Shown: piece after piece, positions 306-60,650 of the stretch
How positions within the stretch are numbered: position 1 is the first letter of the stretch
How the letters are laid out: each line of letters begins with the position of its first letter
IMG/VR virus record: IMGVR_UViG_3300029288_000107
Span: 1-64,000 of that record
From: a virus
Taxonomy: Duplodnaviria > Caudoviricetes
Direction: 5' to 3' (one strand)
DNA: 64,000 nucleotides
The notes under the pieces: model-generated
Told to the model about the DNA's origin: nothing
The model's input: only the letters and a program-made list of their open reading frames with translations
Databases searched by the model: none
Program-made: the position numbers and the translations under genes

Positions 306-851
306 ATGATGGTGGCGACGGGCGGAGGCATGATCTCGCGGGAGCGGAAGAAGGACCGGCAGCGGCAGCCGTGGCGGCCCGCCGGGCGGCCGGTGACGAC
401 GGGGGCGGAGGCGCGGCAGGCGCGCACGCGCGTGCGCGAGGTGGAGTACGCGACGGGGCGGACCATCGCGCTGGGCGAGTTCGAGTTCGCGCGGGCCGAG
501 ATTCGGCTGGTGGCGGGTGGCCTCAAACGGGAGGCGCTGTTGGAGGCCATGCGGGCCATCGCGGCCGAGTGGTTGGATCGCGAGGAGGCGGCCATCACTG
601 GGGTGCCGCGCGAGGCGCAGCCGTACGCGGCGTTGGCTGGGCTGCGGCGGTCCGTGGGCATCGGCTACGGAATGACGCTGCGGGGCGCGGGCAAGCGCGA
701 GACGGTGAAGTTCGACGTGTTCCAGACGGAGCCGGTGGCGGACGGCGCGGGGATCGGCACCGTGCTGGACGGCATCATGACGTGGGTCGAGGCCAAGGCG
801 AAGGAAGAGAAGGAAGCCGTGACCGGCGGGGCGCCGGACGAAGGGATCTAG
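306..851 (+). CDS. hypothetical protein
   Basis: GC3-rich ORF; start uncertain (306 or 330). Confidence 0.65.
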   Translation: MMVATGGGMISRERKKDRQRQPWRPAGRPVTTGAEARQARTRVREVEYATGRTIALGEFEFARAEIRLVAGGLKREALLEAMRAIAAEWLDREEAAITGVPREAQPYAALAGLRRSVGIGYGMTLRGAGKRETVKFDVFQTEPVADGAGIGTVLDGIMTWVEAKAKEEKEAVTGGAPDEGI

Positions 852-1229
852 GTGGCGACGATGAACGAGACGAAGCGGACGTGGAAGCGGCTGGGCGTGT
901 GGGAGAGGGTGGAGCGCACGACGCAGGTGGATGGGCACACGGTGCCGTACACGGCAGTCGTGGTGACGCACAAGGGACACCGCTGGGAGCGGCCGGATAC
1001 GCGGGAGGGGCGCGCCGAGATCAGCGTGGCCATCCGCACGGTGGAGGACCGGGAACTGCGCCGCGTGCGCATCGAGCGGCTGCGCGCGAAGGTGGCGGAG
1101 TTGGCCAAGGAGATGCCGGGAGAGGTCGACGTCGAGGCCGGTGGCGCCGTGGCGAAGGCGGCCGACCTGCTGCGCACCGCGGGCGAGCTGATGGACGCCG
1201 AGGACGCGCGGGAGCAGAGGACGGCCTAG
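852..1229 (+). CDS. hypothetical protein
   Basis: Packed ORF; start at 852 or 861. Confidence 0.65.
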   Translation: MATMNETKRTWKRLGVWERVERTTQVDGHTVPYTAVVVTHKGHRWERPDTREGRAEISVAIRTVEDRELRRVRIERLRAKVAELAKEMPGEVDVEAGGAVAKAADLLRTAGELMDAEDAREQRTA

Positions 1230-1230
1230 C

Positions 1231-2523
1231 GTGGCGGACGACAAGAAGATCAAGCCTGCGGTGGGCTTCGTGGACAGGCGCAACGCGCTGGCCATCTACC
1301 GCAAGCTGAACGAGGCCCATGGATCGGGCACGATCGCCATGGCGGCGCAGGGGCGCCGCGTGCGCGTCGATCGGATCTCTACGCGCAGCTTGGCCATGGA
1401 CTTCTCGCTGGGGGGCGGCGTGCCTGCCGGGCAGATCATCAAGATCGTGGGGCAGGAGTCGTCGGGGAAGACGACGCTGGCGCTGCGACTGGCGGCCGAC
1501 GCGCAGCAGCGCTGCGCCAACTGTCTGCGCTACGTCCAGGACCTCACGGTGGAGGAGGTCGTGGACGAGGCCACGGGCGAGGTGGACTACCGCGCGCGGG
1601 GCACGTGCGACTGCATGAAGGCGGGGGTGTACACGCCGGTCCAGGCGGAGGCCGAGAAGGACGCGGACTTCGCGGCGCGCGTCGCGGTACTGGTGGAGAA
1701 CAGCTTCGACGAGTGTCGGGTGACCTACGTGGACGCAGAGGCAGCGCTGGACCTGTCATGGGCGGCCCGGGTGGGGGTGGACACGCGGCGGCTCGTGCAC
1801 GTGGTGCCCAAGACGGCGGAGGATGCCGTGGACATCTACGTGGAGATGCTGTTCACCGGGCTGGTAGACGTCATCATCCTCGATTCGATCGCGGCGCTCA
1901 CGCCGGAGGAGGAGGTCGAGGCGTCGTCGCACGACCAGCAGCAGGGGCTCGCGGCGCGCATCATAAACAAGTTCGTGCGGCGCGCCAACGCGGCCAGCAT
2001 CGCGGTGGATCTGGGGAACGGCCGGAGCCGGGCGCCGACGCAGATCTGGCTGAACCAGCTGCGGCAGAAGATCGGAGTGACGTTCGGTGAGGGGCTGGTG
2101 GAGCCGGGCGGCATGGGACAGAAGTTCGCGGCGGGCGTCAAGATCAAGATGTGGGCGAGCGGGTGGAAGAAGCGCGAGCTGCTGGGAGACCTCGCCAAGG
2201 ACGACCGCGTGCGGATCGGGGAGACCGTGGAGGTCAACTGGATGGTCGAGAAAAACAAGTTCGGCCCGGCCAAGGGCGAGGGGCGCTTCATCCAAATCGC
2301 GAGCGGGCCGCGCATGGGTGAGATCGACGAGTTCGGCTTCATGGCGCACCTGGCGGAGGCGCGGGGTTTGCTGCGCAAGGCGGACAAGGGCAACGGCTGG
2401 CTGCTGGGGGATCGGGAGTACAAGCGCAAGGCGGACGCGTACGACAAGATGCGGGAACCCGCGACCCTGGCGGCGCTGCGGGCCATCCTGTTGCAGAAGA
2501 TGAACGAGGAGCGGGACGCGTGA
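1231..2523 (+). CDS. recA: RecA/UvsX-family recombinase with Cys-rich insertion
   Basis: ISTRSLAMDFSLGGGVPAG, Walker A GQESSGKTT, YVDAE, Walker B IILDSIAAL, NQLRQKIGVTFG, PGG, KNKFGP. Confidence 0.95.
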   Translation: MADDKKIKPAVGFVDRRNALAIYRKLNEAHGSGTIAMAAQGRRVRVDRISTRSLAMDFSLGGGVPAGQIIKIVGQESSGKTTLALRLAADAQQRCANCLRYVQDLTVEEVVDEATGEVDYRARGTCDCMKAGVYTPVQAEAEKDADFAARVAVLVENSFDECRVTYVDAEAALDLSWAARVGVDTRRLVHVVPKTAEDAVDIYVEMLFTGLVDVIILDSIAALTPEEEVEASSHDQQQGLAARIINKFVRRANAASIAVDLGNGRSRAPTQIWLNQLRQKIGVTFGEGLVEPGGMGQKFAAGVKIKMWASGWKKRELLGDLAKDDRVRIGETVEVNWMVEKNKFGPAKGEGRFIQIASGPRMGEIDEFGFMAHLAEARGLLRKADKGNGWLLGDREYKRKADAYDKMREPATLAALRAILLQKMNEERDA

Positions 2524-2915
2524 GCGCACGGCCACGAAGCCTTGACGGCATCATCGCGGGTACCGGCAGCCCGCGGGCGCAAGAGGAGCGGATCGCGGCC
2601 CGCATCGGGGGGCGGCGCGTCCCGGGCAGCGGGGCGTCGCCGTACGCGCGTGGCGATGTGAAGGAGGACCGGTACCTGGTGGAGGCAAAGCAAACCGCGA
2701 AGGACTCCATGCGGGTGACATGGGCGTGGTTGGCGAAGATCACGCGGCAGGCGGTGGGCATCGGGCGCGTGCCCGCGCTGGCGATCGAGCTGCGCAGTGG
2801 GGCGCCGCGGGACCCGCTGGTAGGATCGGAGTGGGTGATGCTGCCGCTCGGGGAGTTCGAGCGGCTGCTTGAGGTTGACCGCGATGCACGGGGTGCACAG
2901 ATTGCACGGAGGTGA
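2520..2915 (+). CDS. Hjc-like PD-(D/E)XK Holliday junction resolvase
   Basis: E...GGRRVPGSGA...GDV...LVEAKQT pattern; coupled to recA. Confidence 0.75.
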   Translation: MSARPRSLDGIIAGTGSPRAQEERIAARIGGRRVPGSGASPYARGDVKEDRYLVEAKQTAKDSMRVTWAWLAKITRQAVGIGRVPALAIELRSGAPRDPLVGSEWVMLPLGEFERLLEVDRDARGAQIARR

Positions 2916-2919
2916 CACG

Positions 2920-3294
2920 ATGACGGCGAAGGCGCGGAAGGTGGTAAGGATGCGGCGGAACGACACGGTGGCGATGCGGGCGGAGCCGAAGGGCTCGGCG
3001 GTGCAGGTTGTGGAGCGTCTGCGGCGGCAGGCGGCGGACAACCGGCGCGCGCAGCGGCAGCTGGAGGCGGCGGCCAAGCGCGAGAGCGGGCTGCGGGACC
3101 TCGTGGGGGGCCTGCACTACGAGGTGGCGGGCGTGGATCTGAAGTTCTGGGCCGACACGACGGTGGCGGGCTACCCGCTACGGCTCTTGGTAGGCGTGGC
3201 CAAGCGTGGTGGCGGCCGGACCGCGGCGACGCTGGACGAGGGCGAGGCGCGGCAGCTGATGGGCTTCCTCCGGGCCACGCTGGGTGATGCATGA
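2920..3294 (+). CDS. hypothetical protein
   Basis: GGAGG RBS; packed ORF. Confidence 0.6.
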   Translation: MTAKARKVVRMRRNDTVAMRAEPKGSAVQVVERLRRQAADNRRAQRQLEAAAKRESGLRDLVGGLHYEVAGVDLKFWADTTVAGYPLRLLVGVAKRGGGRTAATLDEGEARQLMGFLRATLGDA

Positions 3295-3518: not shown

Positions 3519-3549
3519 GCTGCGGCGCGCCGTAGAAAGGTGGAGCAAG

Positions 3550-3960
3550 ATGCCGATGGAACTGACGAGGAACGAGGTGGCCAAGGTCATGGACGGCACC
3601 GCGATCGGGGTGACGCGGTACTTCCCGGCGGAGTGCCCCCTCAAGGCGGGGGACGAGATCACGCTGGCCTACGGGGTGGACCAGGCGACGTCGCACCCGA
3701 CCATCGTGGCGAAGGCCACGGTCATCGGGGTGCGGCCGTTCACGGTGCGGGAGCGCCGGGACAACACGACGGAGGCGCGCGAGGAGGCCCGCAAGGAGGG
3801 CTGGGCGAGCCCGGCCGAGTGGTGGGGCCACTTCGAGATCCGGTACGGCACGTTGCCGGACGAGGCGATCGTGCACCGCATCCAGCTGCGCGTCGAGGAC
3901 CGCGTGGAGGCGGCGGGCGTGCCGGACGCGGGGCAGATGCCGATGCTGGGGCCGCGGTGA
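3550..3960 (+). CDS. ASCH/PUA-like domain protein
   Basis: TR...LKAGD...ATVIGVR...ARKEGWASPAEWWGHF..RYG resembles the ASCH C-terminal motif. Confidence 0.55.
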   Translation: MPMELTRNEVAKVMDGTAIGVTRYFPAECPLKAGDEITLAYGVDQATSHPTIVAKATVIGVRPFTVRERRDNTTEAREEARKEGWASPAEWWGHFEIRYGTLPDEAIVHRIQLRVEDRVEAAGVPDAGQMPMLGPR

Positions 3961-3989
3961 AGTAGCTGCGCACGCGCGTGCGCTGAAGG

Positions 3990-5896: not shown

Positions 5897-6397
5897 ATGT
5901 CGTTGATGGGCCTCGATTTGTCCTGCACGGCGACGGGCATCGCCGTTCTGGCCGACGACGGCGCCGTGCTGGCGCTGGATCGGGTGGGGCGCAAGCTCAC
6001 GCGCGCGGCGACGGTGCGGGACAAGGTGGAGCGGCTGATGCACATCGCGGACCGTGTTCTGCGCGTGCGGGACCAGTTCGACGTGCGGACCATCGCCGTG
6101 GAGAACTACGCGTTCCACGCGCGGGGGGCGCAGAACGACCTCGCGGAGCTGCACGGCGTGGTCAAGATGCAGCTCTGGCTGCGCAACCAGATCGAGGTGC
6201 GGCTGGTGCATGCCAGCGCGGCGCGCAAGGCGGTGCTGGGCGTGGGCCGCATCGAGAAGGCGGACATCGTGCGCGTCGTGCGAGCGCGCGGTGTGGCGGT
6301 GGCGGACGACAACCAGGCCGATGCATGGGTGGTGGCGGAGTGGCTGCGGCTGGAGGAGGACGCGCACGCTGGTGCGCGCGACAACGGGAAGGAGTGA
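5897..6397 (+). CDS. ruvC: RuvC-like Holliday junction resolvase
   Basis: GLDLSCTATG, AVENY, K.DI, DNQADA acidic catalytic motifs. Confidence 0.85.
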   Translation: MSLMGLDLSCTATGIAVLADDGAVLALDRVGRKLTRAATVRDKVERLMHIADRVLRVRDQFDVRTIAVENYAFHARGAQNDLAELHGVVKMQLWLRNQIEVRLVHASAARKAVLGVGRIEKADIVRVVRARGVAVADDNQADAWVVAEWLRLEEDAHAGARDNGKE

Positions 6398-9536: not shown

Positions 9537-10601
9537 GTGAACGTAGATGTCAGAACCGAATCCGAATTGCGCGCTGCTATTGCGGCGGGTAACACGCCGG
9601 TCGTTGTCGGAACGATCGAGATGCAGACGGTCGGGACAGAGTCGCCAAATATCGTGGTCGCGGCTGGAGGGTCGTTGAGCATCGTGGCGTGGGAGTCCAG
9701 CCAGCCGCACGTGGAGGCGTGGGAGTCCAGCCAGCCGCACGTGGAGGCGAGGGAGTCCAGCCAGCCGCACGTGGTGGCGTGGGGGTCCAGCCAGCCGCAC
9801 GTGGTGGCGTGGGGGTCCAGCCAGCCGCACGTGGTGGCGAGGGGGTCCAGCCAGCCGCACGTGGTGGCGTGGGGGTCCAGCCAGCCGCACGTGGGGGCGT
9901 GGGGGTCCAGCCAGCCGCACGTGGTGGCGTGGGGGTCCAGCCAGCCGCACGTGGTGGCGAGGGGGTCCAGCCAGCCGCACGTGGTGGCGTGGGGGTCCAG
10001 CCAGCCGCACGTGGTGGCGAGGGGGTCCAGCCAGCCGCACGTGGAGGCGTGGGGGTCCAGCCAGCCGCACGTGGAGGCGAGGGGAACAGTACAACTCTCC
10101 GTGCGCGGAGCGGTCGCCGTCGTTGCCTCTGCGATGGTTGCGATCTGCGTGCTCGGCGGGAATCCGACGATAGATGGCGGCGGATTCGTCACGCGCGTCG
10201 ATCGAAGCACGCCCGAGAAGTGGTGCGAATACTACGGCATCGAGATGGCGGACGGATACGCGCTGCTATACAAGGCCGTGCGCGACGATTACCTGTCGCG
10301 ATACAAAATGTCGTACGCACCCGGGACATGCCCGGAGGCTCCGGACTGGGACGGACCGGCGCGTGAGTGCGGTGGCGGGCTGCACTTCTCGCCGTGCGTT
10401 GCTATGGCGCGAGCGTTCGACGACGAGGCGACACGGTATCTGGCGTGTCCGGTGTTGCTCGCTGAGATGGTCGTGCACCCTGACGGCAACTATCCCGAGA
10501 AGTGCAAGGCGAAGCGGGTGGCGCTGCCGTGTTGGGAGGTGGACGAGGACGGGACGGCCGTGGCGGACGCGGTCGTGAACTGGCCGCCGAAGGAGAGATA
10601 G
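9537..10601 (+). CDS. decapeptide-repeat (beta-helix-like) protein with conserved C-terminal phage domain
   Basis: 13 x (V/I)xA(W/R)(G/E)SSQPH; C-terminal LYKAV...CGGGLHFSP...YLACPV. Confidence 0.8.
   Translation: MNVDVRTESELRAAIAAGNTPVVVGTIEMQTVGTESPNIVVAAGGSLSIVAWESSQPHVEAWESSQPHVEARESSQPHVVAWGSSQPHVVAWGSSQPHVVARGSSQPHVVAWGSSQPHVGAWGSSQPHVVAWGSSQPHVVARGSSQPHVVAWGSSQPHVVARGSSQPHVEAWGSSQPHVEARGTVQLSVRGAVAVVASAMVAICVLGGNPTIDGGGFVTRVDRSTPEKWCEYYGIEMADGYALLYKAVRDDYLSRYKMSYAPGTCPEAPDWDGPARECGGGLHFSPCVAMARAFDDEATRYLACPVLLAEMVVHPDGNYPEKCKAKRVALPCWEVDEDGTAVADAVVNWPPKER
9681..10084 (+). repeat. 30-bp coding tandem repeat, 13 copies
   Basis: Units end in gtccagccagccgcac at 9710, 9740 ... 10070. Confidence 0.97.
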
Positions 10602-12712: not shown

Positions 12713-12739
12713 CGCACGCGCGTGCGCGGGGAGACGGCG

Positions 12740-15354: not shown

Positions 15355-15515
15355 CACAAAAATTCACGCCCGAGCAAAACCGCGAATTCAACGCGCTCAT
15401 GCGGGGCATCGAGCAAATGCTCGAAATCTGGAAGGAGTCGCAACTTCCGACGAAAAAAACGGCACGTTCGCGGAAAAACAAACCTGCTACGGCTGGGAAA
15501 AAGAGGGGACGATGA
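15351..15515 (+). CDS. small basic hypothetical protein
   Basis: ATGA overlaps on both sides; MTQKFTPEQNREFNALM... Confidence 0.5.
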   Translation: MTQKFTPEQNREFNALMRGIEQMLEIWKESQLPTKKTARSRKNKPATAGKKRGR

Positions 15516-15844
15516 GCGACATCAACCCGAGGATCGTGGACGGGAAGCCGGTGTTTTCGGGTGATGCAAGTCGCCCATTTTGGAATGCAATCAGACGTGT
15601 CAAGGGACTGAAAACACACGCCGTTTTGTACAGCTACGGATGCAAAGCACAAGAGATGGAATCGGAAAACACGAAACTCCGCCGCCAGCGCGACGAGGCC
15701 CGCCGGGAGTTGTGCGAGATCGGAGCGTCGTACAATTGCAAGATTGATGGATGTTTCGTAACGCCGCTCGAATACGCGATGGACCGTGAGTGGGGGTACC
15801 TGTACGCGGACGCACGCGCGTGCGCGAAGGGAGGCGAGGGATGA
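15512..15844 (+). CDS. hypothetical protein, paralog of 20324-20704
   Basis: MSDINPRIVDG.PV.SG / LRRQRDEA / W.YLY blocks shared. Confidence 0.7.
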   Translation: MSDINPRIVDGKPVFSGDASRPFWNAIRRVKGLKTHAVLYSYGCKAQEMESENTKLRRQRDEARRELCEIGASYNCKIDGCFVTPLEYAMDREWGYLYADARACAKGGEG

Positions 15845-18888: not shown

Positions 18889-19410
18889 ATGGCCAAGAAG
18901 TCGAAGTTGCTGAAGGATCTGGAGGCGTTCAACCCGTGCCAGACGTGCGAGACGGCGCGGGAGCGGGACGCGCTGCGCACGCGTGTGCGCGAGCTGGAGG
19001 AGCAGCTGGAGGGCGAGCGGCGCATCCACGAGCAGACGGCGGTGCAGGCGGCGGACGAGTCGTGTCGGCAGCGGGCCGAGCGGATCCGGGCCCGCACGCA
19101 GCACTACCTGGGCAAGTGGACGGAGGTCGACGCCAACCAGACCTACCGCATCATGCGGCGCATGGCGGTGTACGAGACGGCGGTCAAGAACATCATGGGG
19201 CACGTGACGCAGCGCGCCCTGCTGATCTGCCCGCACTGCGGCAAGGTGTGGCAGGTGGAGCGCAGCGCGCTGACGCCGGGCAGCGGGTGGCGGCTGTGCG
19301 AGTCGTGCCAGGAGGCTGTGCCGGACCCGTGGGCGGCGGGGGACTGGCTGGCGGAGGGGCGCAACGGGGTCGCGCTGGCGACGAAGGATTCGGCGAAGCG
19401 GGGTAAGTAG
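18889..19410 (+). CDS. coiled-coil / zinc-finger hypothetical protein
   Basis: CQTC, CPHCG, CESC. Confidence 0.6.
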   Translation: MAKKSKLLKDLEAFNPCQTCETARERDALRTRVRELEEQLEGERRIHEQTAVQAADESCRQRAERIRARTQHYLGKWTEVDANQTYRIMRRMAVYETAVKNIMGHVTQRALLICPHCGKVWQVERSALTPGSGWRLCESCQEAVPDPWAAGDWLAEGRNGVALATKDSAKRGK

Positions 19411-29843: not shown

Positions 29844-29873
29844 GGCGCACGCGCGTGCGTTGGGAGGTGAGGG

Positions 29874-40771: not shown

Positions 40772-41532
40772 CGATGAGGTGCGGACGTTGTGGAGTGGAG
40801 GTGCAGGGGTCGGACGCGACGGCGGTGGAGGCGCTGACCGTGGAAGGGACGCTGCTGTGTTCGGTGCTGTGCGCCGACTGCGCGAGGGTGCTGAAGGCCG
40901 GGAAGTATCCCGGGGTGACCATGCGCGCGGACGGGCGGCTGGAGGCGATCCCGAGCGTGCCTGCCAACGACTGCGACAAGCTGGGAGAGCACGGGTGCGG
41001 GGTGCACTGCGGGCCGTGTGACTTCGACGCGGGCAACCAGGCGGACTGCCCGTACCACCAGGACAACGTGCACGCGCGTGCGTCGGAGGGGGATGTGCTT
41101 GTTGTGACGGAGGCGGAGTGGAATCGCGCGGTAGCCCTCCGCGAGCGACTGGCAGCCTACGCGCACGAGGCGTGGGCGATGTGGATGCGGCACCTGAGCA
41201 TGCGGCAGCGCGGGACGAGTTGGCGGGGGGAGCGCGAAATCTGGGAGTTCGAAGTTGAGGACGCGAAGCGGTGGGACAGGCAGGTACGGACGACCTACGC
41301 GGAGCTGCCGGAGGCCGAGAAGGCGAGCGATCGGGCGCAGGCGGACCGCATCCTGGCGATCCTGCGCGGGGCGGACACCACGGTGGCCAAGGAGGAGGCG
41401 GTGCCGTTGGCGGAGCGTCCATGCATGTTCGAGGGGTGTCGCACCCGCACGCATCGGGTCGATCGGGGATACTGTCCGGCGTGCAAGGCGCGGATGAAGG
41501 CGCGCGAGGCGATCCTGCGGGGGGAGGGATGA
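40768..41532 (+). CDS. mosaic protein with a RyR-like segment
   Basis: LAAYAHEAWA.W...YAELPEAEKASDR; ends AILRGEG. Confidence 0.6.
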   Translation: MTMRCGRCGVEVQGSDATAVEALTVEGTLLCSVLCADCARVLKAGKYPGVTMRADGRLEAIPSVPANDCDKLGEHGCGVHCGPCDFDAGNQADCPYHQDNVHARASEGDVLVVTEAEWNRAVALRERLAAYAHEAWAMWMRHLSMRQRGTSWRGEREIWEFEVEDAKRWDRQVRTTYAELPEAEKASDRAQADRILAILRGADTTVAKEEAVPLAERPCMFEGCRTRTHRVDRGYCPACKARMKAREAILRGEG

Positions 41533-43712: not shown

Positions 43713-43737
43713 GCGCACGCGCGTGCGCAAGGACGAC

Positions 43738-46426: not shown

Positions 46427-46452
46427 CGCACGCGCGTGCGAGAGGAGGCATC

Positions 46453-46671: not shown

Positions 46672-47036
46672 TGGCGGCGTTCGACGGCCCGACCTGCGAC
46701 TACAACACGACGAGGTGCTACCACGTGCCGTACGGGGTGACGGTGTCGCGCACGGACGACGTGACGCGGGCCACTAGCACGGTGCCGTGGGACGACGTGG
46801 TGGTGAACAACACGACGGCGACGTGGCCGAGCGCGGAGATCGACCTGGACCTGCCCGCGTTCGAGCCTCCGAAGCGGCCGGTGGCGCTGCGCACGAGCGT
46901 GCGTGAGGTGGTGAGCGCGATGCTGTCGCCGAAGACAGTGGATCGGGTGACGCAGGTGGCATGGACGCGGGGGCGGGCGCCGCGAGGCTGTAGCTTCCGC
47001 ACGCTGCGGTGCTGGGGAACGGATCGGAGGAGGTAG
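46671..47036 (+). CDS. hypothetical protein
   Basis: TGATG overlap. Confidence 0.45.
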   Translation: MAAFDGPTCDYNTTRCYHVPYGVTVSRTDDVTRATSTVPWDDVVVNNTTATWPSAEIDLDLPAFEPPKRPVALRTSVREVVSAMLSPKTVDRVTQVAWTRGRAPRGCSFRTLRCWGTDRRR

Positions 47037-47509: not shown

Positions 47510-49561
47510 GTGACGGTGATCCGCACACAGGAGGGGCGCCGCAAGAGCGTGCTGCGCCCGCAGGACGCGGCGAGCGTGCTGGCCCGGCAGATTGGCACCA
47601 TGCCGCCGGGCGAGGTGGCGCTGCTGGATCTCGTGATCGCGGACCGTGTGGCCCATCAGAAGGTGGAGGCGGCCCGCTGGCGTCGCAAGCCAGTGTCCAC
47701 GGCGCAGTTTCTGGAGGATCCGTACTTTCTCGGCGATTCCTGTCGCACATTGTTCCCGGCCCTTCGGGAGGACCTGATCCGGCTGTTCGAGGGAGGGTAC
47801 CGGGAGATCATCGCTGGTGGAGCCATCGGTGTGGGCAAAACCATGATGTCGACGCTGGTGCTGTGTCGCGTGCTCTACGAGTTGAGCTGCATGGCGTCGC
47901 CGCACGCGGCCTTCGGGCTGTCTCCTGGGAGCGAGATCCTGATCCCGCTGGTGTCCAAGAACTTGTTGCTCACGCGCCGTGTCATCAAGAGTGCTGTGGA
48001 CGACAAGCTCAAGCTGTCGCCCTACTTCTTGAACGAGTTCACGCCGCAGTTCCGGACGGAGGAGACGATCTTCCCCGGTAACATCCGCATGGTGGTTGGG
48101 TCATATGGTGCAGAGCGTGTATTGGGTGGAAACGTTGCGGCAGCTTATTTGGACGAAACAAATTTCCCCCCTGGTACGCGCAAGCAGGTCATCACGCAGA
48201 CGTTGGGCAAGAAGGTCAGCGAGGCGCACTTCGACGTGGTGGAGAAGGTCTACACGAATCTGATGACGCGCATCAAAAGCCGCCTCATGCGCAGCGGGGG
48301 CGACACGCCGGGGCTGATCATCTTGACGTCGTCGGCGGGAACGATCAATTCGTTCATTGATCGGCGGGTCAAGGAGGCCGAGAACGACCCGCTGTGTTTC
48401 GTGCGCGACCACACGTCGTGGACGGCGCGGCCCAAAAGCCACTTCTGCGGGAAGACGTTCCGGGTCGTGTGCGGGACGTCCTCCGTGCAGTCGAAGATCC
48501 TCGATGACAACGAGGAGGTGGACCATGGGCAGCTGGAGCGGCAGAATTCGTTCGTGGTCGAGGTGCCGGTGGAGTTCAAGCGCGACTTCGAACTGAACCT
48601 GGAGGACTCGCTGCGGGACATCGCGGGCATATCGACGCAGGCGATCTCGGCCTACATCCAGCGCGTGGAGGCGTTGGAGGATGCCGTGCGAGACGATCGC
48701 ACGCACCCGTGGGGGAAGGAGGCGTGGATCGCGGGTACACCCATGACCTTCCGCTGGGACCTGTTGTGCCAGGAGGTGGAGCACAGCGTAGCGGGGGGGA
48801 AGAAGGAACTGCTGTGGCAGCCGCTGAGAAATCCGAGTGCGCCGCGCTGGATTCACATCGACACCTCGCTGTCGGGGGATGCGACGGGGATCACTATGGC
48901 GCACATCGCGAGGTTCATGGAGGTGCAGCGGCGCATGCCGGACGGTCGCCCCGTGGTGGAGTTGGCGCCGTTCTATGTGGTGGACTTCATGCTGTGCATC
49001 CGGCCGCCGAGCGGGGAGCAGATCTTCCTCGGGGACGTGCGGCAAATCGTGTACGAGTTGCAGAACCACGGCTACTACATCATGGGGTTGAGCACGGACC
49101 AGTTCCAAGCGGCCGATCTGCGGCAGCAGGTCACGCGGACGGCGGGCATCAAGACTGTGCTTCAGTCGGTGGACTTGACTACGGCGCCATACGATACGTT
49201 AAAGGGGGCGATCTACGAGGGGCGGCTGGAGTTGTACCGGTACGAGCCGCTGCTTGAGGAGCTTCGGGCGCTAGAGTATGATCGCGAGCGAGGGAAAGTT
49301 GACCACCCGAAGCATGTCGGGAAAGACGTGGCGGACAGTTTGGCGGGCGCAATTTTTGGACTGGCACAGAACGCGAGCCGAATGCCGGTGATGCGGAGCG
49401 TGGAGGACGTGGAGGCGCCGCCGACGGAGCAGGATGTCATGGGTCGCATCGTGAGCGGCGGCCAGGTGAAGGGGCCGGTGGACGCGGATGAGATGCGGGC
49501 GCGGCAGGAGGCGGAGCAGGCGGTAGGGCCCATCGCGGTGCCCTTCCTGTTCGGGGACTGA
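47510..49561 (+). CDS. terL: terminase large subunit
   Basis: Walker A GGAIGVGKT, Walker B AYLDE, LTSS, RNase H IHIDTSLSGD, STDQFQ, DHP...KDVADS; upstream of portal. Confidence 0.9.
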   Translation: MTVIRTQEGRRKSVLRPQDAASVLARQIGTMPPGEVALLDLVIADRVAHQKVEAARWRRKPVSTAQFLEDPYFLGDSCRTLFPALREDLIRLFEGGYREIIAGGAIGVGKTMMSTLVLCRVLYELSCMASPHAAFGLSPGSEILIPLVSKNLLLTRRVIKSAVDDKLKLSPYFLNEFTPQFRTEETIFPGNIRMVVGSYGAERVLGGNVAAAYLDETNFPPGTRKQVITQTLGKKVSEAHFDVVEKVYTNLMTRIKSRLMRSGGDTPGLIILTSSAGTINSFIDRRVKEAENDPLCFVRDHTSWTARPKSHFCGKTFRVVCGTSSVQSKILDDNEEVDHGQLERQNSFVVEVPVEFKRDFELNLEDSLRDIAGISTQAISAYIQRVEALEDAVRDDRTHPWGKEAWIAGTPMTFRWDLLCQEVEHSVAGGKKELLWQPLRNPSAPRWIHIDTSLSGDATGITMAHIARFMEVQRRMPDGRPVVELAPFYVVDFMLCIRPPSGEQIFLGDVRQIVYELQNHGYYIMGLSTDQFQAADLRQQVTRTAGIKTVLQSVDLTTAPYDTLKGAIYEGRLELYRYEPLLEELRALEYDRERGKVDHPKHVGKDVADSLAGAIFGLAQNASRMPVMRSVEDVEAPPTEQDVMGRIVSGGQVKGPVDADEMRARQEAEQAVGPIAVPFLFGD

Positions 49562-49592
49562 GCGACGCACGCGCGTGCGCGAGAGGTAGCGG

Positions 49593-51314
49593 ATGGCCAA
49601 GTGGACCGATCGGGTGCGTTCGTGGTGGCGGGGCCGCGGCAGCAGCGATGAGCTGGCTGAGGTGGCGCGCGGCGTAGGGCAGGGCAGCCCGGACGCGCTG
49701 CGTGTGCTGCCGCCGGACGCGGGGCCGGTAGTCACGCCCATGCTGCACGCGGATGGCCTCACGGACGGCATGGGGGCCATGCTCAGCGTGGGCACCGACC
49801 TACTGAGCAAATACATCGACATCGAATTGATGGACGAGTACCCTCCTCTGAGCGCGACCCTCGACGTCTACGCCGATGACGCCACGGTGCAGGACGTGCA
49901 GCGGGGCCACACTATCTGGGCCACCGGCAACGAGAAGCTGGCCCGGGACCTCGCGAACGACATGCTGTACCGCATCTTGCGCATCGACGACGACGCGTGG
50001 GGGGCCATGCGGACGATGGTCAAGTACGGAAATACCCCGGCAGAGATCGTGGCAAACGAGCGCGGCGTTCTGGGTCTCAACTTCCTGCCGCCCGCGTCGG
50101 TGCGCAAGGTGCTGGACCACAAGGGGGCGGTGGTCGGCTACGTGCAATCGGTGAGCGCGGCGGGCTTCGCGGCGGTGACCAGCGAGAGCTTCCCCAAGTT
50201 GCTGAAGGAGCGGGCGGCGGGCCCCAACAAGGACGGGGTGGTGGTGTTCGCGCCGTGGGAGGTCGTGTGGTGGCAGATGCCCGCCAAGCAGAGCCGGGCG
50301 CCGTACGGGGAGTCGGTGCTGAGCGCGGCGCGCTGGGCCTGGAAGCGGCTCATCATGCTGGAGGACGCCGCGGTGCAGATGCGGCTTACGAAGGCGCCTT
50401 CGAGATATGCAGTATATGTGGAATGTGGCCACATGCCGCCGAACCAGCAGTTGGCCTACCTGCGCAACGTCAAGAACCAGTGGAAGAAGCGAAAGGTGGT
50501 AGACCCGTCCACGGGGCAGCTCGATTTCCGGCCGAATCCTGCCGGGCTCGACGAGGACCTGTTCATCCCGGTGGTGGACGGGCGCGAGGCGACGCGGGTC
50601 GACGTGCTGAACGGCATCGACTTCAACATCATCGACGATCTGGAGTACTTCCGGGGGCAGATGATGAGCGCGACTCACGTGCCGAAGTCGTACATCTTCC
50701 AGACCGATGAGGTCACGCGTGCAAGTTTGTCACAATCCGATGTGATGTTCGCGCGGACGGCCATGCGGGTGCAGCGCCAGTTCATGGCGGGGATTCGGCA
50801 GGTGCAGCGGCTGCACTTCGCGCTGTTGGGGGTGGACCCGGACCAGGTGGAGTTGGACTTCGACATGACCGTGCCGTCGAGTGTGCTGGAGATGTCGCAG
50901 ATCGAGTCGGGCAACGCGCGGGCCGCGCTGGCGGCGGCGGTGGCCGACTTCTACGATCGCAAGACCATCCTGACGGAGGTGCTGGGCAAGAGCGAGGCGG
51001 AGGCCGAGACCATCATGCGGGCGCGCAAGAACGACTACGCCAACCAGGTCAGTCTGGAGGCGGCTGGGCAGCAGGCCATGATGGGCGGGGAGGCTGCGTT
51101 CGGGGGCGAGGCGGGCGCTGAGGGCGGCGCGCTGCCCACGCTGCCAGGCGAGGAGGCAGAGGGCGAGGAGGCGGCGGCCACGGAGGCGCTCCGGAAGCGG
51201 CTGGACAGGTTGGTGGAGGACGTGGAGCACTTGAACGGGGCGGTGCGGCGCACGGAGGATAACGTGCGGCGCCTGCCGCGGGTGCTGGCGCGATCGGCGC
51301 GGGGCCGGGGCTAG
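49593..51314 (+). CDS. portal protein (T4 gp20-like)
   Basis: YGESVL..AR..WK.L...EDA, R..KAP.R...YV..G.MP, DEDLFIP, DDLEYFR. Confidence 0.92.
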   Translation: MAKWTDRVRSWWRGRGSSDELAEVARGVGQGSPDALRVLPPDAGPVVTPMLHADGLTDGMGAMLSVGTDLLSKYIDIELMDEYPPLSATLDVYADDATVQDVQRGHTIWATGNEKLARDLANDMLYRILRIDDDAWGAMRTMVKYGNTPAEIVANERGVLGLNFLPPASVRKVLDHKGAVVGYVQSVSAAGFAAVTSESFPKLLKERAAGPNKDGVVVFAPWEVVWWQMPAKQSRAPYGESVLSAARWAWKRLIMLEDAAVQMRLTKAPSRYAVYVECGHMPPNQQLAYLRNVKNQWKKRKVVDPSTGQLDFRPNPAGLDEDLFIPVVDGREATRVDVLNGIDFNIIDDLEYFRGQMMSATHVPKSYIFQTDEVTRASLSQSDVMFARTAMRVQRQFMAGIRQVQRLHFALLGVDPDQVELDFDMTVPSSVLEMSQIESGNARAALAAAVADFYDRKTILTEVLGKSEAEAETIMRARKNDYANQVSLEAAGQQAMMGGEAAFGGEAGAEGGALPTLPGEEAEGEEAAATEALRKRLDRLVEDVEHLNGAVRRTEDNVRRLPRVLARSARGRG

Positions 51315-54191: not shown

Positions 54192-55052
54192 ATGGGATTC
54201 GTACGGAAGGCAGACATCGAACGGCACCGGGCTGGGTGCCTGGAGGCGCGGGTGGCGGCGGTGCGAGAGGCGGCCGAGCGGGCACTGGGCACGGAGATCG
54301 AGGTGATCGCGACGCACGCGGACCACGCCATCGTGCGGGCGGGCAGCGCCGTGAAGCGGCTGACCTACAGCCTCGCGGAGAGCGGCGGCCTCGCGGGCGG
54401 CGTGGCGGTGGAGGACGCGGACATGGCGGCATTGGAGGGGATGGATCTGGACGCGGCGGTGGCGGAGGATCTGCGGGGCGTTGTGGCGGCCATGCTGGCG
54501 GGGCAGGCACTGCCGCGCACGCGCGTGCGTGACCTGTCGCGCATGGCGCGGCGGGATGGCGCGTACTGGCTGGGCGAGGCCGTGGCGGGGTGCGCGCGGG
54601 TCGAGGCGCCGTGGCGGAACTGGTTCGCGCCGCAGTCGGCGACGGTGCGGGAAGCGCTGCACGGGCGCATCCGGGAGATCGAGGAGCCGGTGCCGCGCCA
54701 GCGCTTCGGCAAGCTGCCGGAGGGCAAGCTGCCGGAGTACGCGGGCGAGCTGCGGGAGGGGCTGGCCGCGCTGCGCGTGGTGGCCCGGGGGCTGTTTGAC
54801 GATTTAACGGACGATGTGGCATACCAAGAGGCGGGATTGGCGGCCGTGCACCAATCGCTGCGCGATGAGGCCAGCACCATGGATCGGGGGTTGGCGTGGT
54901 TGGAGCGGATGGCGTGGGCGGGCAGGGAAGGCGTGGTGGCGACGGCTCACGATCAGATCGCAGCGACGCTGCGGGACGCGCTGGTGGTGCGGGAGCACTT
55001 GCGAACGAGAAGGAGCACGGACCATGGAGAGGAAAGTTCAGCCGCTGAGTGA
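54192..55052 (+). CDS. hypothetical head-module protein
   Basis: AGGAGG RBS; position in the head operon. Confidence 0.65.
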   Translation: MGFVRKADIERHRAGCLEARVAAVREAAERALGTEIEVIATHADHAIVRAGSAVKRLTYSLAESGGLAGGVAVEDADMAALEGMDLDAAVAEDLRGVVAAMLAGQALPRTRVRDLSRMARRDGAYWLGEAVAGCARVEAPWRNWFAPQSATVREALHGRIREIEEPVPRQRFGKLPEGKLPEYAGELREGLAALRVVARGLFDDLTDDVAYQEAGLAAVHQSLRDEASTMDRGLAWLERMAWAGREGVVATAHDQIAATLRDALVVREHLRTRRSTDHGEESSAAE

Positions 55053-56094: not shown

Positions 56095-56140
56095 CGCAGG
56101 AGGCGCGGGGCTCCGGTTGGGCGCGGACCCGGTCGGAGCG
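56070..56140 (+). other. candidate -1 programmed ribosomal frameshift signal
   Basis: A AAA AAC at 56070-56076, upstream GGAGG, downstream stem 56084-56111. Confidence 0.65.
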
Positions 56141-56300: not shown

Positions 56301-57941
56301 ATGGGCTGGCTTTTCGAGATGATCCCGACCGGGCTGACGTTGACGGAGGCGGCGGGCGGCAAGCTCACGGCGCGGGGGCTGTTCGGCATCTGCGGCGTGC
56401 CCACGGCGAACGGCCGCATCTACCCGAAGAAGCTGGTGGAGCGGGAGATCGGGCGGCTTGGAGAGCGCATGAAGAACCGGCAGGTGCTGATGCAGCTCGA
56501 TCATCCTTCTGACGGAAAAGCATCGCTGTTGCAAGCGGCGGCGCTGCTCACCGGATTGGACCTCGACGGCGACAACGTCATGGGCGAGGCGGAGATCCTC
56601 GGCACGCCCAACGGCAAGATCCTGCGGGCGCTCATCGAGGCGCAGGTGAAGGTGGGCGTGAGCAGCCGGGGTTTCGGCAGCACCAAGGCTACCAACGAGG
56701 GCGAGGAGGTCGGCGAGGACTTCGCGCTGGCGAGCTACGACTTCGTGGCGGACCCCAGCGTGCGGACCGCGCTTCCCAAGTTCTACGCGGAGAGCGTGGA
56801 GGCGCCCGCCGAGGAGGCGCCGCTGGAGCTGTTCCAGCGGGAGTTCCCGGAGGCGTTCGCGCAGTTGACGGAGGCGGCGACCCGGGACGCGGTGGCGCGG
56901 GCGCAGGAGCAGACGGCGGCCATCATTGCGAAGGCGGTCGAGACGGAACGCACGCGCGTGCGAGACGAGATGACGGAGGCGTTCGAGCACCAGCTGCGGG
57001 ACGCCGTGGTTGGCTTGCGTGAGGATTTGGAGCGCGATCTGCGCGAGGAGTACGAGCGGGACCCGGCGGTGGCGGGGGCCCGGGCGGCGCTGGCGCAGGT
57101 GGTGGAGATGATCCGGCCGTACCAGCAGGCGCCGGACGCCGACGCGGTGCGGGACGCGCTGCGGGCGCGGGAGCTGGAGCTGGCCACGGCGCATGAGGCG
57201 ACGGCGCAGGCGGAGGAGCGGGCGGCGCGGTCGGACCGGCTGCTCGCGCTGGAGACCAAGCTGGCGGGGCACCCGCTGGCGGATCCGCTGCGCAAGGTGC
57301 TGGCGCCGGTGGTGGCGCGCGAGCGCGATGAGGGGCTGGCCGGGCGGCTGGACGACCTCATTGCGGAGGCGGCCGACATGGTCCCGGCGAGCGAGGTGGA
57401 GGCGCGGGCGGCCGAGCGCATCGCGCTCACCGAGGCGCAGGATCTGATCAAGGAGAACGAGCAGAAACGGTCCCAACTGGCGGAACGGGTGGACGAGTTG
57501 AAGGCCAAGTTGGTCGAAGCGGTGAAGCTGGGGCAGGAAGCGGACGGGCTGCGGGCGGAGGCCGAGCAGCGCGCGGAGGAGGCGGAAGCCAAGCTCGACG
57601 AGGGCGAGGCGGAGGTCGACGAGCGCGAGCTGGCGGCATTCAAACGCGGTGCGGCGGCGATTCTGCCTGCGGGCGCACGGGCGCGCAAGCTCATCGAGGC
57701 GGCTGGCGACGAGGCCGAGGTGGAGCAGGTGCTGGTGGAGAGCAGGGCGCAAGCCATGGGTGACGGGGACTTGGAGCAGGCGCGGCAGGCGGTCCGGGGC
57801 CGAGGGATGGCACCGGGGGCGGCCGCGTTCCGGCTGGAGGAGGGGGCGTCGCGCGGTGGTGCGCGGGGCTCCGACGAGGTGGTCTCGGCCACGGGCCTGA
57901 CCGCCAACGACATGACCGCGCTACTAGGAGACGGTCAGTAG
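56301..57941 (+). CDS. prohead protease (T4 gp21-like) fused to a coiled-coil scaffold
   Basis: ANGRIYP, QLDHP, TPNGKIL, GVSSRGFGS, DFVADPS; long acidic helical C-terminus. Confidence 0.92.
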   Translation: MGWLFEMIPTGLTLTEAAGGKLTARGLFGICGVPTANGRIYPKKLVEREIGRLGERMKNRQVLMQLDHPSDGKASLLQAAALLTGLDLDGDNVMGEAEILGTPNGKILRALIEAQVKVGVSSRGFGSTKATNEGEEVGEDFALASYDFVADPSVRTALPKFYAESVEAPAEEAPLELFQREFPEAFAQLTEAATRDAVARAQEQTAAIIAKAVETERTRVRDEMTEAFEHQLRDAVVGLREDLERDLREEYERDPAVAGARAALAQVVEMIRPYQQAPDADAVRDALRARELELATAHEATAQAEERAARSDRLLALETKLAGHPLADPLRKVLAPVVARERDEGLAGRLDDLIAEAADMVPASEVEARAAERIALTEAQDLIKENEQKRSQLAERVDELKAKLVEAVKLGQEADGLRAEAEQRAEEAEAKLDEGEAEVDERELAAFKRGAAAILPAGARARKLIEAAGDEAEVEQVLVESRAQAMGDGDLEQARQAVRGRGMAPGAAAFRLEEGASRGGARGSDEVVSATGLTANDMTALLGDGQ

Positions 57942-57969
57942 CGGCACCAAGTCGCCGCAGGAGAGAACG

Positions 57970-59616
57970 ATGACGAACAGCAACGGAATGGAGGCCCGGA
58001 GCCTGCTGGAGCAGGCGGGCGGGCGCGGACAGGGCACCATGCTCGACGAGTCCTACAACGCGCAGGTCGTGCGCAAGTGGTCCGACATGGACGTGCAGGG
58101 CGGGAAGGTCAACTTCCTGCGCGACCTCGACCCGCAGCGGGCTAAGGTGGCGGCGCTGTGTCTGGAGAACCAGGCGCGGTTCCTGCGCAACCTCAACGAG
58201 GACACGCTTTCGACGAACAGCGGCAGCTTCCAGAAGTACATCTTCCCGGTCGTGCGCCGCCTGTTCCCGAACCTGATCCTCAACGACATCGCGACGGTGC
58301 AGCCCATGACGGGTCCGCAGGGCGCGATGTTCACGCTGGAGTACCGCTACGACGACCGCAAGGGCACCAAGCGTCCGTGGGGCGGCATCGCGTTGCAGCC
58401 GTACCAGATGGGGTACGAGGGCGCGCTGGCGGCGAGCGACGACGCGATCAAGAACTTCGCGAAGAACTACGCGAACGAGTACGTGGACTACGACGCGGTC
58501 TGCACCGACACCGGCGCGGCGCCCGCGACGCTGTCCAACACGGATCTCAACTGCCGCGTCCCGGCCTGGTGGCCGATCCGGGCCCCGGGAACCAGCGGGC
58601 AGCGCACCTTCGCCGTGACGGCGGTGTGCCGTGTGACGGACGCTGCGGTGCCGGTGGTCGGCGCCTACACCAGCATCAGCACCAAGGCGGCGGCGACGGC
58701 GGTCCTCACGGACCAGTACGCGCACGCGACGGGCACGCTGGACATCTCGACGGGCGCGTGGACGGTCAACGCGCTGCTCATCGCGGGCGGCGCCTCGACG
58801 TTCGTGGCGAACACGGTCATCTACCTCCAGTACTGGGTCAACAGCGAGTTGACCTACACGGTCACCGGCAACCGGCTCCAGCGCATGTCGCTGAACCTGA
58901 CCCGGCACGACATCGTGGCCGAGCCGTGGCGGCTCAGCGCGGCCTGGTCGCTGGACGCGGCGCAGGACCTGCGGGCGCAGCAGGGCATGGACCTCGAAGC
59001 CGAGATGGTGGCGGGCATCGCCAACGAGATCGGCTGCGAGATCGACCGCACCGGCATCGACATGATGATCAACGGCGCGGCGCACGCGGCGTCGTACGCC
59101 TACGCGGGCACCTGGCCGGGCGACATGGAGAAGATCCACACGGCGGTCACCTACATCGACGCGCTGAGCGCCGCCATCTCGAAGGCGGGCGGGCGCGGCC
59201 CGGCGACGTTCGTGGTGGCGGGGCCGGAGGCGTCGGCGCTGCTCGGGCAGCTCGGCGCGCACACCGACTGGGCGAGCAACATGCAGATGCAGCAGCCCGC
59301 GTCGCACGGCGACCGCAACACGAACTACCCGATCAAGCGGGTGGGCTCGATCAACGGGAAGTACACGCTGTACGAGAACCCGTGGCAGGACAGCACGAAG
59401 GTGCTGGTCGGCTACAAGGGCGGCTCGTGGCTGGACGCGGGCTTCGGCTACGCGCCGTACATCCCGCTCTACGCGACGGACACCTGGACCGATCCGGACA
59501 CCCTGATCCAGAAGAAGGGCATGGCCAGCCGCGGCGCGCTGAAGCTGCTCCGTTCGGAGTACTACGGCGTGCTCACGCTCACCGGCCTGCCGACCGTCAC
59601 GTCGACCCTCGCCTAG
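57970..59616 (+). CDS. major capsid protein (T4 gp23-like)
   Basis: VQPMTGPQG, WSLDAAQDLRA.QG.D.EAE...EIDR, VGYKG.S..DAG..YAPYIPL. Confidence 0.95.
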   Translation: MTNSNGMEARSLLEQAGGRGQGTMLDESYNAQVVRKWSDMDVQGGKVNFLRDLDPQRAKVAALCLENQARFLRNLNEDTLSTNSGSFQKYIFPVVRRLFPNLILNDIATVQPMTGPQGAMFTLEYRYDDRKGTKRPWGGIALQPYQMGYEGALAASDDAIKNFAKNYANEYVDYDAVCTDTGAAPATLSNTDLNCRVPAWWPIRAPGTSGQRTFAVTAVCRVTDAAVPVVGAYTSISTKAAATAVLTDQYAHATGTLDISTGAWTVNALLIAGGASTFVANTVIYLQYWVNSELTYTVTGNRLQRMSLNLTRHDIVAEPWRLSAAWSLDAAQDLRAQQGMDLEAEMVAGIANEIGCEIDRTGIDMMINGAAHAASYAYAGTWPGDMEKIHTAVTYIDALSAAISKAGGRGPATFVVAGPEASALLGQLGAHTDWASNMQMQQPASHGDRNTNYPIKRVGSINGKYTLYENPWQDSTKVLVGYKGGSWLDAGFGYAPYIPLYATDTWTDPDTLIQKKGMASRGALKLLRSEYYGVLTLTGLPTVTSTLA

Positions 59617-59640
59617 TCCTGCGCTGATCAAGCGCCCTCC

Positions 59641-59669
59641 TTGAGATAAAGCGTCACGTATTGTACAGT
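59641..59669 (+). promoter_or_regulatory. possible promoter after the capsid gene
   Basis: TTGAGA, 17 bp spacer, TACAGT in an AT-richer gap. Confidence 0.45.
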
Positions 59670-59707
59670 CACTTCAAGGCGCGCCCCTGCGCGTCGTCAT
59701 GGAGGTA

Positions 59708-60085
59708 ATGATGAGGTACATCGCGTTGGAGCAGGTGGGGAGACCCATGCACCTGACGGGCGTGCGGGCACGGATGCAGGGCACGGTGCGCGTGGCAGAA
59801 CACGCGTCGGTGCTGATCCTGCCGGGGGGCATCACGGAGGACACGGATCTGGACCTGTCGCCGTGGGTGGCGGCAGGGTTCGTCATGCCGATGCCGGAGC
59901 GGGTGGCGCCGGTCCCGAAGCCGGAGCCGAAGGTGGAGCCGGAGGCGCCGAAGGCAGCGGATCCTGTGGCGGAGACCACGAAGGCGGAGGATCCGCTGGA
60001 GCCCGTGGTGGAACCGGAGCCGCCGGTGGTCGCGAGCGCGGCCCCGGAGGCGGTGCGGGCCGGGCGCGCGCGGCGGCGGGTCTAG
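59708..60085 (+). CDS. hypothetical protein with Pro/Glu-rich tail
   Basis: GGAGGT RBS. Confidence 0.55.
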   Translation: MMRYIALEQVGRPMHLTGVRARMQGTVRVAEHASVLILPGGITEDTDLDLSPWVAAGFVMPMPERVAPVPKPEPKVEPEAPKAADPVAETTKAEDPLEPVVEPEPPVVASAAPEAVRAGRARRRV

Positions 60086-60086
60086 C

Positions 60087-60650
60087 ATGCGTCTGGACGA
60101 GCTGAACGCGCGGGCTGTGGCGCCCGCGGAGTTGGGCGTAGGGAGCCTCGTGGAGGTGCGGACCCGCATGGGGGCCGTGGTGGCGGAGGGGGCCGCGGCG
60201 TACCCGACGGCGCATGGGACCTGCGTGGGGGGCCGCTTCTTCGACGGGGCGCTCTACCTGTTCCTGCCGAAGGAAACGCACGCGCGTGCGCCATTGGACG
60301 AGGCCAAGGCCAAGGAGAGGCGGGGCAAGTCCAAGTTGGGGCCGCTGGACCCGGAGGCGCTGCCGGATGACGTGCGGCTCGCCGTTACGGTGGACCACGA
60401 CCTCAACGAGGAGGACGTGCAGCGCGTGCTGGCCTCCATCGGCGATGCGGCGCTACAGGCACTGAAGGGAGTCGGCATGCGGGAGGACGAGGTCTACGCC
60501 CGCGTGGCCGCCGTGCTGAAGGCCGTGGAAAACTGCCTCGTGGCCAAGGAGGGCGCTGCGGAGGACGCGGCCGCCGCCAAGGCGCGCGTGGATGCGGCGA
60601 GCAAGGTCAAGCGCAAGGCGAGCGGCACCGACGCCGACGACGAGGAATAG
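60087..60650 (+). CDS. hypothetical virion-module protein
   Basis: GC3-rich ORF; LDE motifs. Confidence 0.65.
   Translation: MRLDELNARAVAPAELGVGSLVEVRTRMGAVVAEGAAAYPTAHGTCVGGRFFDGALYLFLPKETHARAPLDEAKAKERRGKSKLGPLDPEALPDDVRLAVTVDHDLNEEDVQRVLASIGDAALQALKGVGMREDEVYARVAAVLKAVENCLVAKEGAAEDAAAAKARVDAASKVKRKASGTDADDEE

Follow-up and report, generated by a model that had tools for sequence, protein, structure and literature searches.

Dispersed palindromic sites of 13-16 bp, bound by dimers that are able to act at a distance, are known from KorB and its OB sites on plasmid RK2, from ParB and parS, and from Noc and NBS. Here we describe a set of such sites in a window of 64,000 nucleotides, the first 64 kb of the 104,812-bp viral record IMGVR_UViG_3300029288_000107 (hereafter G000; CheckV completeness 57%), in which the palindromic 12-mer GCACGCGCGTGC recurs as the core of a 16-bp dyad. 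A palindromic site of about 16 bp, as in the ParB-parS, Noc-NBS and KorB-OB systems, is thus present, but those systems are not known for the placement at gene junctions that characterizes the sites of this phage.

The closest described counterpart in phages belongs to the Cluster O mycobacteriophages, which carry 34 copies of a 17-bp dyad repeat, TGTTCGGNNNCCGAACA, with invariant arms (Cresawn et al. 2015, PMC4351075). The function of this repeat is unknown, and its authors read it as the site of a dimeric protein (PMC4351075). The dyad of G000 shares with it the invariant inverted arms, the variable centre, the tens of copies, the lack of meaningful orientation to transcription and the mixture of short-intergenic, near-5'-end and internal positions. 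The two differ in sequence and in the arrangement of half-sites, and the Cluster O phages are temperate-like siphoviruses of Mycobacterium whereas the dyad belongs to a clade of uncultured T4-like myoviruses, so the likeness is one of kind and not of homology. Beyond what the Cluster O repeat offers, the present system can be followed across deep divergence, with a drifting specificity and one universal site embedded in coding sequence.

A second comparison is provided by the stoperators of Cluster A phages (L5, Bxb1), dispersed repressor sites at which bound repressor halts the elongating polymerase. They are described as asymmetric 13-mers, oriented with transcription and bound by the monomeric immunity repressor of a temperate phage (PMC9283540). 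Their resemblance to the dyad is that one short site recurs many times over the whole genome, chiefly in the short intergenic spaces of operons. The site described here differs in being a perfect, orientation-free dyad, and G000 shows no sign of lysogeny genes. Neither asymmetry nor orientation was found in G000, while 10 of its 11 intergenic copies do lie in short intra-operon gaps. Cluster K phages carry the SAS and ESAS motifs immediately upstream of many starts, conserved across subclusters and of unknown function (Pope et al. 2011, PMC3203893). SAS is asymmetric, includes the ribosome-binding site, lies 3-7 bp from the start and occurs only in the non-structural half of the genome; a role in translation is assumed for it (PMC3203893). 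The dyad, unlike SAS, precedes the ribosome-binding site, is separated from the start by 9-28 nt (median 15.5) and is spread over every region of the genome.

MerR operators are dyads of the 7-4-7 type set in the 19-20-bp spacer between -35 and -10. The dyad of G000 is comparable in its 6-4-6 form, usually with a flexible pyrimidine-purine step at the centre, but no -35/-10 elements were found around it: its flanks are coding sequence upstream and a ribosome-binding site downstream, which is not the setting of a MerR operator. Dispersed, near-invariant dyad or operator sites are already a known kind of phage feature. The initial annotation of this DNA had recognized no described phage system of this kind; the Cluster O dyad repeats (PMC4351075) and the Cluster A stoperators (PMC9283540) are such systems.

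From its gene content, G000 is an uncultured T4-like myovirus. Pfam identifies in the window a T4-type portal (49593-51314), a prohead protease fused to a longer C-terminal part (56301-57941) and a gp23-type capsid protein (57970-59613), as well as RecA, an SNF2 helicase and an IS605-type TnpB, and sheath and baseplate genes lie in the record beyond the window. No close cultured relative was found, blastn giving short matches only and the capsid protein being at most 30% identical to that of any cultured phage. All 170 called genes are on the plus strand (GC 67%, GC skew +0.19). The sequencing runs listed as holding this phage are DNA runs, from landfill and groundwater, with no RNA runs among them. 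T4-like phages are the textbook case of temporal control by early, middle and late promoters with clamp-coupled late transcription, and a genome-wide set of dyad operators is, to our knowledge, no part of that scheme. The dyad set described here is carried by a whole environmental clade, with genomes of up to about 160-170 kb and GC contents of 35-68%, from landfill, groundwater and sediment metagenomes. New here are a view of the whole clade, in which six or more motif classes have co-evolved, the universal coding-embedded site and the evidence for recognition of duplex DNA.

Enrichment and spacing of the palindrome

All 16 perfect copies of GCACGCGCGTGC listed for the window in the initial annotation were recovered, against a mean of 0.11 and a maximum of 1 in 100 dinucleotide-preserving shuffles. 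The whole record contains 26 perfect copies, about one per 4 kb, and the excess that had been proposed holds under every null model applied: Markov models of order 1-5 predict 0.06-0.19 copies, and synonymous-codon shuffles give 0.58 coding copies where 13 are observed. The palindrome is the most frequent 12-mer of the record; the runner-up among palindromic 12-mers has 2 copies. Scanning viral contigs for the extended 14-mer gave, among the matches listed, mostly single chance occurrences.

The motif is unusually sharp, since allowing one mismatch adds only four copies (18977, 35775, 42570 and 46891), with 2.7 expected; three of these had been reported before and the one at 35775 had been missed. 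As also reported, the next base is G in 16 of 16 window copies and the previous base is C in 12, which makes these 12 full 14-mers, and a two-mismatch intergenic copy (61755-61768) is real. The 14-mer is itself flanked by G or A before and C or T after, so that the site is a symmetric 16-mer, in this phage (G/a)CGCAC-GCGC-GTGCG(C/t). The copies of G000 are spaced more evenly than chance (coefficient of variation, CV, 0.45; P<0.0005, whether the null is uniform placement or random gene starts).

Conservation and drift of the dyad in relatives

Relatives were found through the capsid protein and their whole records then fetched. The comparison set (capsid 44-49% identical, GC 35-68%) was taken from outside the nearest relatives (capsid 70-83% identical) and the 127-kb contig of the same phage. 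A 16-bp dyad, GCG(A/C)AC-N4-GT(T/G)CGC, is found clade-wide, with conserved arms, a lineage-specific centre and 5-42 copies per record, as follows.

G001, 161 kb, GC 66%: CG(A/C)AC-ACGT-GT(T/G)CG, 42 copies
G002, 161 kb, GC 66%: CG(C/T)A(C/T)-GCGC-(A/G)T(A/G)CG, 26 copies
G003, 31 kb, GC 35%: CGAAC-TCGA-GTTCG, 5 copies
G004, 58 kb, GC 65%: CGAAC-C(C/T)(A/G)G-GTTCG, 13 copies
G005, 104 kb, GC 52%: CGAAC-T(C/T)(A/G)A-GTTCG, 17 copies
G006, G007 and G008: site types of G004 or G002, with 40, 29 and 30 matches to a looser pattern

Reversed-pattern controls gave 0-6 matches in the relatives, and the genes of every fetched record are on one strand. Several junctions have kept the site across genomes, among them those before the portal gene and before the genes at record positions 97203 and 76529, and G002, G003 and G005 have perfect sites at the junction orthologous to that of the two-mismatch copy (61755-61768).

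The most conserved copy is embedded in coding sequence. The site at 54517 is present at homologous codons in 27 of the 27 clade loci that cover gene 54192-55052, and was not found in a more distant outgroup. It encodes R-T-(R/Q)-V-R (RMRMR in G002) amid poorly conserved surroundings, and its synonymous positions always spell the motif of the lineage itself, including CGA/CGC arginine codons in the 35%-GC phage. Conservation extends to relatives and to synonymous positions, as had been suggested should be checked. The earlier view of a DNA or RNA signal, and not a peptide motif, is supported at the DNA level. The specificity classes, which number at least six and have co-evolved, constitute a natural experiment in which motif class set against protein sequence should expose the binder and its recognition code.

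A distant T4-like contig (capsid 30% identical) has five copies of a different 18-bp palindrome, C(T/C)GGACCGTACGGTCC(G/A)G, at 1630, 7073, 13304, 16484 and 20200, none of which adjoins a start. It may be unrelated, or a very diverged counterpart.

Placement relative to genes

Placement was computed with our own gene calls. For 17 of the 26 copies the distance from the end of the copy to a called start is -6 to 30 nt, where random placement gives 1.6. About two thirds of the copies end 10-18 nt ahead of a start codon, immediately 5' of the ribosome-binding site, and the usual junction reads stop codon, 0-9 nt, palindrome, ribosome-binding site and ATG, with a total gap of 24-38 nt. Where neighbouring genes overlap, the copy lies in the last codons of the upstream gene and is still 13-17 nt before the next start. 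The intergenic copies comprise 10 in tight gaps made up of site and ribosome-binding site alone and 1 in a long gap; long intergenic gaps hold 3.6 times more bases than tight ones and contain the sigma70-type promoters of this phage. The sites therefore choose tight junctions between stop codon and ribosome-binding site, not free long intergenic DNA, which argues for a role in gene expression. Six genomes together hold 126 sites, and 76 of these have a ribosome-binding site with start codon 9-28 nt downstream (median 15.5 nt), as against 6-18% of random positions.

Our calls divide the 16 perfect window copies as the initial annotation did, into six just past stop codons, three in last codons and seven internal, with all three reading frames in use (RTRVR, ARAC, HARA). 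These copies, with four imperfect ones, are the following, all neighbouring genes being on the plus strand.

424-435: perfect copy inside gene 306-851, read RTRVR
3970-3981: perfect copy 9 nt past the stop of 3550-3960, 17 nt before ATG 3999
6363-6376: degenerate copy, CGCACGCtgGTGCG, 24 nt before ATG 6401
12714-12725: perfect copy 1 nt past TAG at 12712, followed by a ribosome-binding site and an ATG 14 nt downstream
15812-15823: perfect copy within the final codons of 15512-15844; ATG 15841 follows after 17 nt
18977-18988: one-mismatch copy, intragenic
22199-22210: perfect copy within the final codons of 21915-22223; ATG 22225 follows after 14 nt
25075-25086: perfect copy inside 24966-25253 (RTRVR), 170 nt upstream of gene 25257-26063
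26139-26150: perfect copy inside 26063-26659, with GGAGG and an in-frame ATG 23 nt downstream
29847-29858: perfect copy 3 nt past TGA at 29843, 15 nt before ATG 29874
34993-35004: perfect copy within the final codons of 34579-35025; ATG 35022 follows after 17 nt
41070-41081: perfect copy inside 40795-41532, HARA frame
43715-43726: perfect copy 2 nt past TAA at 43712, 11 nt before an ATG
46428-46439: perfect copy 1 nt past TAA at 46426, 13 nt before ATG 46453
46891-46902: one-mismatch copy, intragenic
49567-49578: perfect copy 5 nt past TGA at 49561, 14 nt before the portal ATG 49593; G001 has a site at the same junction
54517-54528: perfect copy inside head-module gene 54192-55052, codons 109-113, RTRVR
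56950-56961: perfect copy inside protease/scaffold gene 56301-57941, with an in-frame ATG (MTEAFE) 8 nt downstream; same in G001
60278-60289: perfect copy inside 60087-60650, HARA frame
61755-61768: degenerate copy, CGCACGaGCGTGtG, two mismatches, 16 nt before ATG 61785

The one-mismatch copies at 18977-18988 and 46891-46902 may be chance, near-copies being about as frequent as background. The in-frame ATG behind the copy at 56950 suggests, by analogy with lambda C/Nu3, a nested scaffold-like product of the protease gene.

A side observation concerns the stop codons. Four of the nine TAA stops of the contig (43712 and 46426; record 99080 and 102534) stand directly before a palindrome, where about 0.7 would be expected. 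Palindrome junctions may require translation to terminate efficiently, or may require an A/T flank.

Probable recognition of duplex DNA

Since the copies of this phage are all perfect, G000 cannot decide between a signal in DNA and one in RNA; the relatives can. That the element is an RNA hairpin (for stabilization, processing or attenuation) or a hairpin in single-stranded DNA is suggested by the fold of the 16-mer of this phage (-9.4 kcal/mol) and by two copies in G001, at 19576 and 91986, which are directly followed by a T-run and then by an early promoter and look like working intrinsic terminators. By hand count, the arms of G002 covary. In G001, arm positions 3 (A/C on the left) and 12 (T/G on the right) are instead statistically independent, their four combinations occurring 11/11/10/9 times (Fisher P=1). 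At 21 of the 41 sites a stem of 5-6 bp would be interrupted at its centre by an A-G or C-U mismatch; the mixed-arm type folds at only -2.7 kcal/mol. Hairpins in their native context fold no better than shuffled sequence (z -0.8 to +1.4), and an Rfam search with the element gave no match. As for intrinsic termination, no G000 copy is followed by a T-run and the G001 arms lack base-pair covariation. Further, the site has symmetric flanks, G before and C after, and centres that are mostly self-complementary, neither of which a loop would need. We consider a hairpin quite improbable.

On the coding strand, the non-palindromic centres of G005 (TTGA/TCAA) and G004 (CTGG/CCAG) are found in either orientation. 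Together with the arm independence in G001 and the symmetric flanks, this fits a site read on double-stranded DNA by a symmetric dimer with independent half-sites, and not a selected hairpin, as judged from sequence comparison. The dimeric-protein site put forward in the initial annotation is accordingly its most likely identity. The annotation had also described the 14-mer as prone to Z-DNA. The strict alternation of purine and pyrimidine is real in G000 and is lost in the lineages with the CGAAC arm, so Z-DNA is not the conserved property.

A possible operator set at gene junctions

Starting from the observed enrichment, placement, conservation with co-evolving specificity and symmetry at the DNA level, we infer binding by a protein and an effect on transcription. 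We tentatively read the sites, by analogy with known repressor systems, as a genome-wide operator set for a phage-encoded symmetric dimer that would gate or locally repress transcription at gene junctions, a reading that is plausible though held short of conviction. The predicted dimer would place one subunit on each half-site of the duplex. The sites stand at junctions within co-directional operons, past the stop codon and 5' of the next ribosome-binding site, with a few at conserved intragenic places. A bound dimer might block or gate RNA polymerase there in the manner of a stoperator, or repress locally where the site overlaps a promoter, and the one-strand genome would in this way be split into blocks of about 4 kb whose expression is set by site occupancy.

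The sites could alternatively be intra-operon promoters or core promoter elements, middle or late, used by a phage-modified polymerase or a phage-encoded polymerase factor. Most of them stand immediately upstream of genes, the one in the protease/scaffold gene precedes a conserved internal ATG, and relatives encode Sigma70_r4 proteins. No other conserved motif was found in the late region at 47-102 kb, and the asymmetric -10 element of T4-type late promoters, TATAAATA, which stands some 6-7 nt ahead of their start site, is absent from the contig, the palindrome being GC-rich and symmetric. The sigma70-type promoters of the record, TTGACACGG...TGTTATAAT, number eight and are restricted to 7.9-32 kb and 102.5 kb:

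7913, 9454, 18478, 19479, 26971, 28708, 32025 and record 102560: promoters with the pattern TTGACACGG-N-(TG)TTATAAT and leaders roughly 50-80 nt long

A symmetric, orientation-free site, however, cannot alone direct one-way transcription; perfect two-fold symmetry would have it fire both ways, yet the genes are on one strand only. The 8-16 nt from 16-mer to ATG are taken up by the ribosome-binding site and leave no room for a start site and leader. Both points favour an operator that blocks or gates over a promoter. Several conserved sites also lack a downstream start, and there are sites that precede complete sigma70-type promoters or fall within their leaders. G001 has 26 such promoters (TTGACAAAC...), to which its sites stand in no fixed register (upstream, over or downstream): six promoters have a site 8-26 nt upstream of -35, immediately past the preceding stop codon and so in the position of a terminator, and the two copies with a T-run (19576 and 91986) are among these sites. 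One further site overlaps a transcription start site, and one leader contains a site at about +37. A promoter function is therefore improbable.

Candidate binding proteins

A pooled scan of G001 revealed a MerR_1 protein and Sigma70_r4 proteins. The MerR-type protein has 180-195 residues, with a winged helix-turn-helix at about residues 100-150, and its best solved relatives are MerR, CadR and CarH. It occurs in G001, G002, G004, G006, G007 and G008, where its gene adjoins the RecA module, and as the sole recurrent candidate for the binder it is our lead.

Among the families that do not look structural, that of gene 25257-26063 alone occurs in all six genomes; it is usually found upstream of the large gene that adjoins the portal gene. 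No Pfam, PHROG or PDB match was found for it, and its AlphaFold model (pLDDT 65), a small helical domain with a long helical hairpin, gave generic coiled-coil structural matches only. By position and by a weak language-model hint it looks like a small terminase, a label without fold or family match. A site lies close to it in 7 of 11 lineages, which is not decisive. Two further genes had been proposed as candidates: 6401-7261 matches only a PHROG of unknown function, and 32090-33244 has no Pfam match. The gene of 68-71 residues behind a site-overlapped promoter in G001 and G005 was rejected as the binder, its product being acidic and absent from G002.

Several results count against an operator set of the kind proposed. 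Searches of about 150 contig proteins with Pfam and PHROGs matched no helix-turn-helix or other DNA-binding family as binder. The MerR-type protein was not found in the incomplete G000 (57%), nor in G003 and G005, by profile search of all six reading frames, and its gene has no palindrome site at its own start. A simple model of independent half-sites fails to predict the arms of G002, where 18 of 26 sites have symmetric arm pairs against about 8 expected from half-site frequencies (hand count); to account for this covariation, the lineage would have to possess paralogous binders or be under some constraint on pairing. Where a site abuts a stop codon, a stalled polymerase would leave the upstream message without its stop. 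Finally, several sites, including the universally conserved one at 54517, are far from any gene start, and a pure junction-gate model leaves them unexplained.

These start-distant conserved copies keep another reading alive, namely that the sites are loading or docking places for a protein that coats, organizes or silences the whole phage chromosome, as in ParB/parS, Noc/NBS or KorB/OB, with junctions being the places cheapest in coding capacity. The sites are orientation-independent, and those of G000 are spaced more evenly than chance would have it, with a weak tendency the same way in G001, G004 and G003. In the tightly packed head module the copies are intragenic and yet keep intervals of 2.4-5.8 kb. 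A 16-bp dyad with a CACGTG or CCCGGG centre is, we assume, close to parS and NBS in form. G001 encodes a ParB_N protein (PF02195). This domain was however not found in G000, G002 (88% complete), G004 or G005, so that one of the five records searched, all of them incomplete, has it. The spacing of G005 is irregular (CV 0.92), gaps in relatives reach 11-21 kb, and the sites avoid long intergenic DNA and make tight junctions of their own. The parS- or Noc-like organization suggested in the initial annotation thus keeps the even spacing in its favour, with the rarity of ParB_N and the tight-junction placement against it, and we regard it as unlikely, though worth keeping in view.

A recombination or processing signal had been suggested as well. 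The sites might be substrates for DNA transactions, as crossovers for module shuffling (PeSL-like), as packaging initiation sites or as targets of a nickase or endonuclease. Short identical repeats are able to promote recombination; the gene family of 76529-76972 lies elsewhere in G001, with a site at its 5' edge in both genomes, and in 7 of 11 lineages a site lies no more than 200 nt from the family of 25257-26063. But many sites occupy perfectly colinear, conserved junctions, while insertion/deletion hot spots are without sites, and on this synteny the recombination signal, or cassette boundary, does not hold up. Cutting at 26-42 places per genome would have no obvious use, and packaging is weakened by the small-terminase label of 25257-26063 being without fold or family match. 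We hold roles in DNA transactions to be very doubtful.

Returning to operators, a more elaborate scheme can be drawn, which we offer as speculation with little chance of being right in full. This T4-like clade would time its one-strand genome with one symmetric gatekeeper and 25-45 dyad gates; replication would multiply the sites, titrate the protein and open the gates, and late expression would be coupled to replication by a route other than the sliding clamp of T4. Specificity would have drifted through at least six motif classes, perhaps channelled by one master site, in an essential head gene, that must also encode R-T-(R/Q)-V-R, as most of the variable positions of the motif coincide with third codon positions of that frame.

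Other features of the record

A TnpB of the IS605 family (OrfB_IS605, with a Cas12f-like TNB domain) is encoded at 37484-38868 of the window; it has its own TTGACA promoter and contains no palindrome copy. Inside gene 9675-10601, 13 tandem copies of a 30-bp unit (GTCCAGCCAGCCGCACGTGG...) at 9695-10085 give a 10-residue protein repeat. A caspase-family protein (Peptidase_C14) is encoded among the tail and baseplate genes at record 76959-77783. Homologues of the large gene 47510-49561, adjoining the portal gene, have 1047-1811 residues in some relatives (G001, G002) against 683 here, and homologues of the portal itself (49593-51314) have 913-1010 residues in some relatives (G001, G002) against 573, which suggests inteins or inserted domains in the longer proteins.

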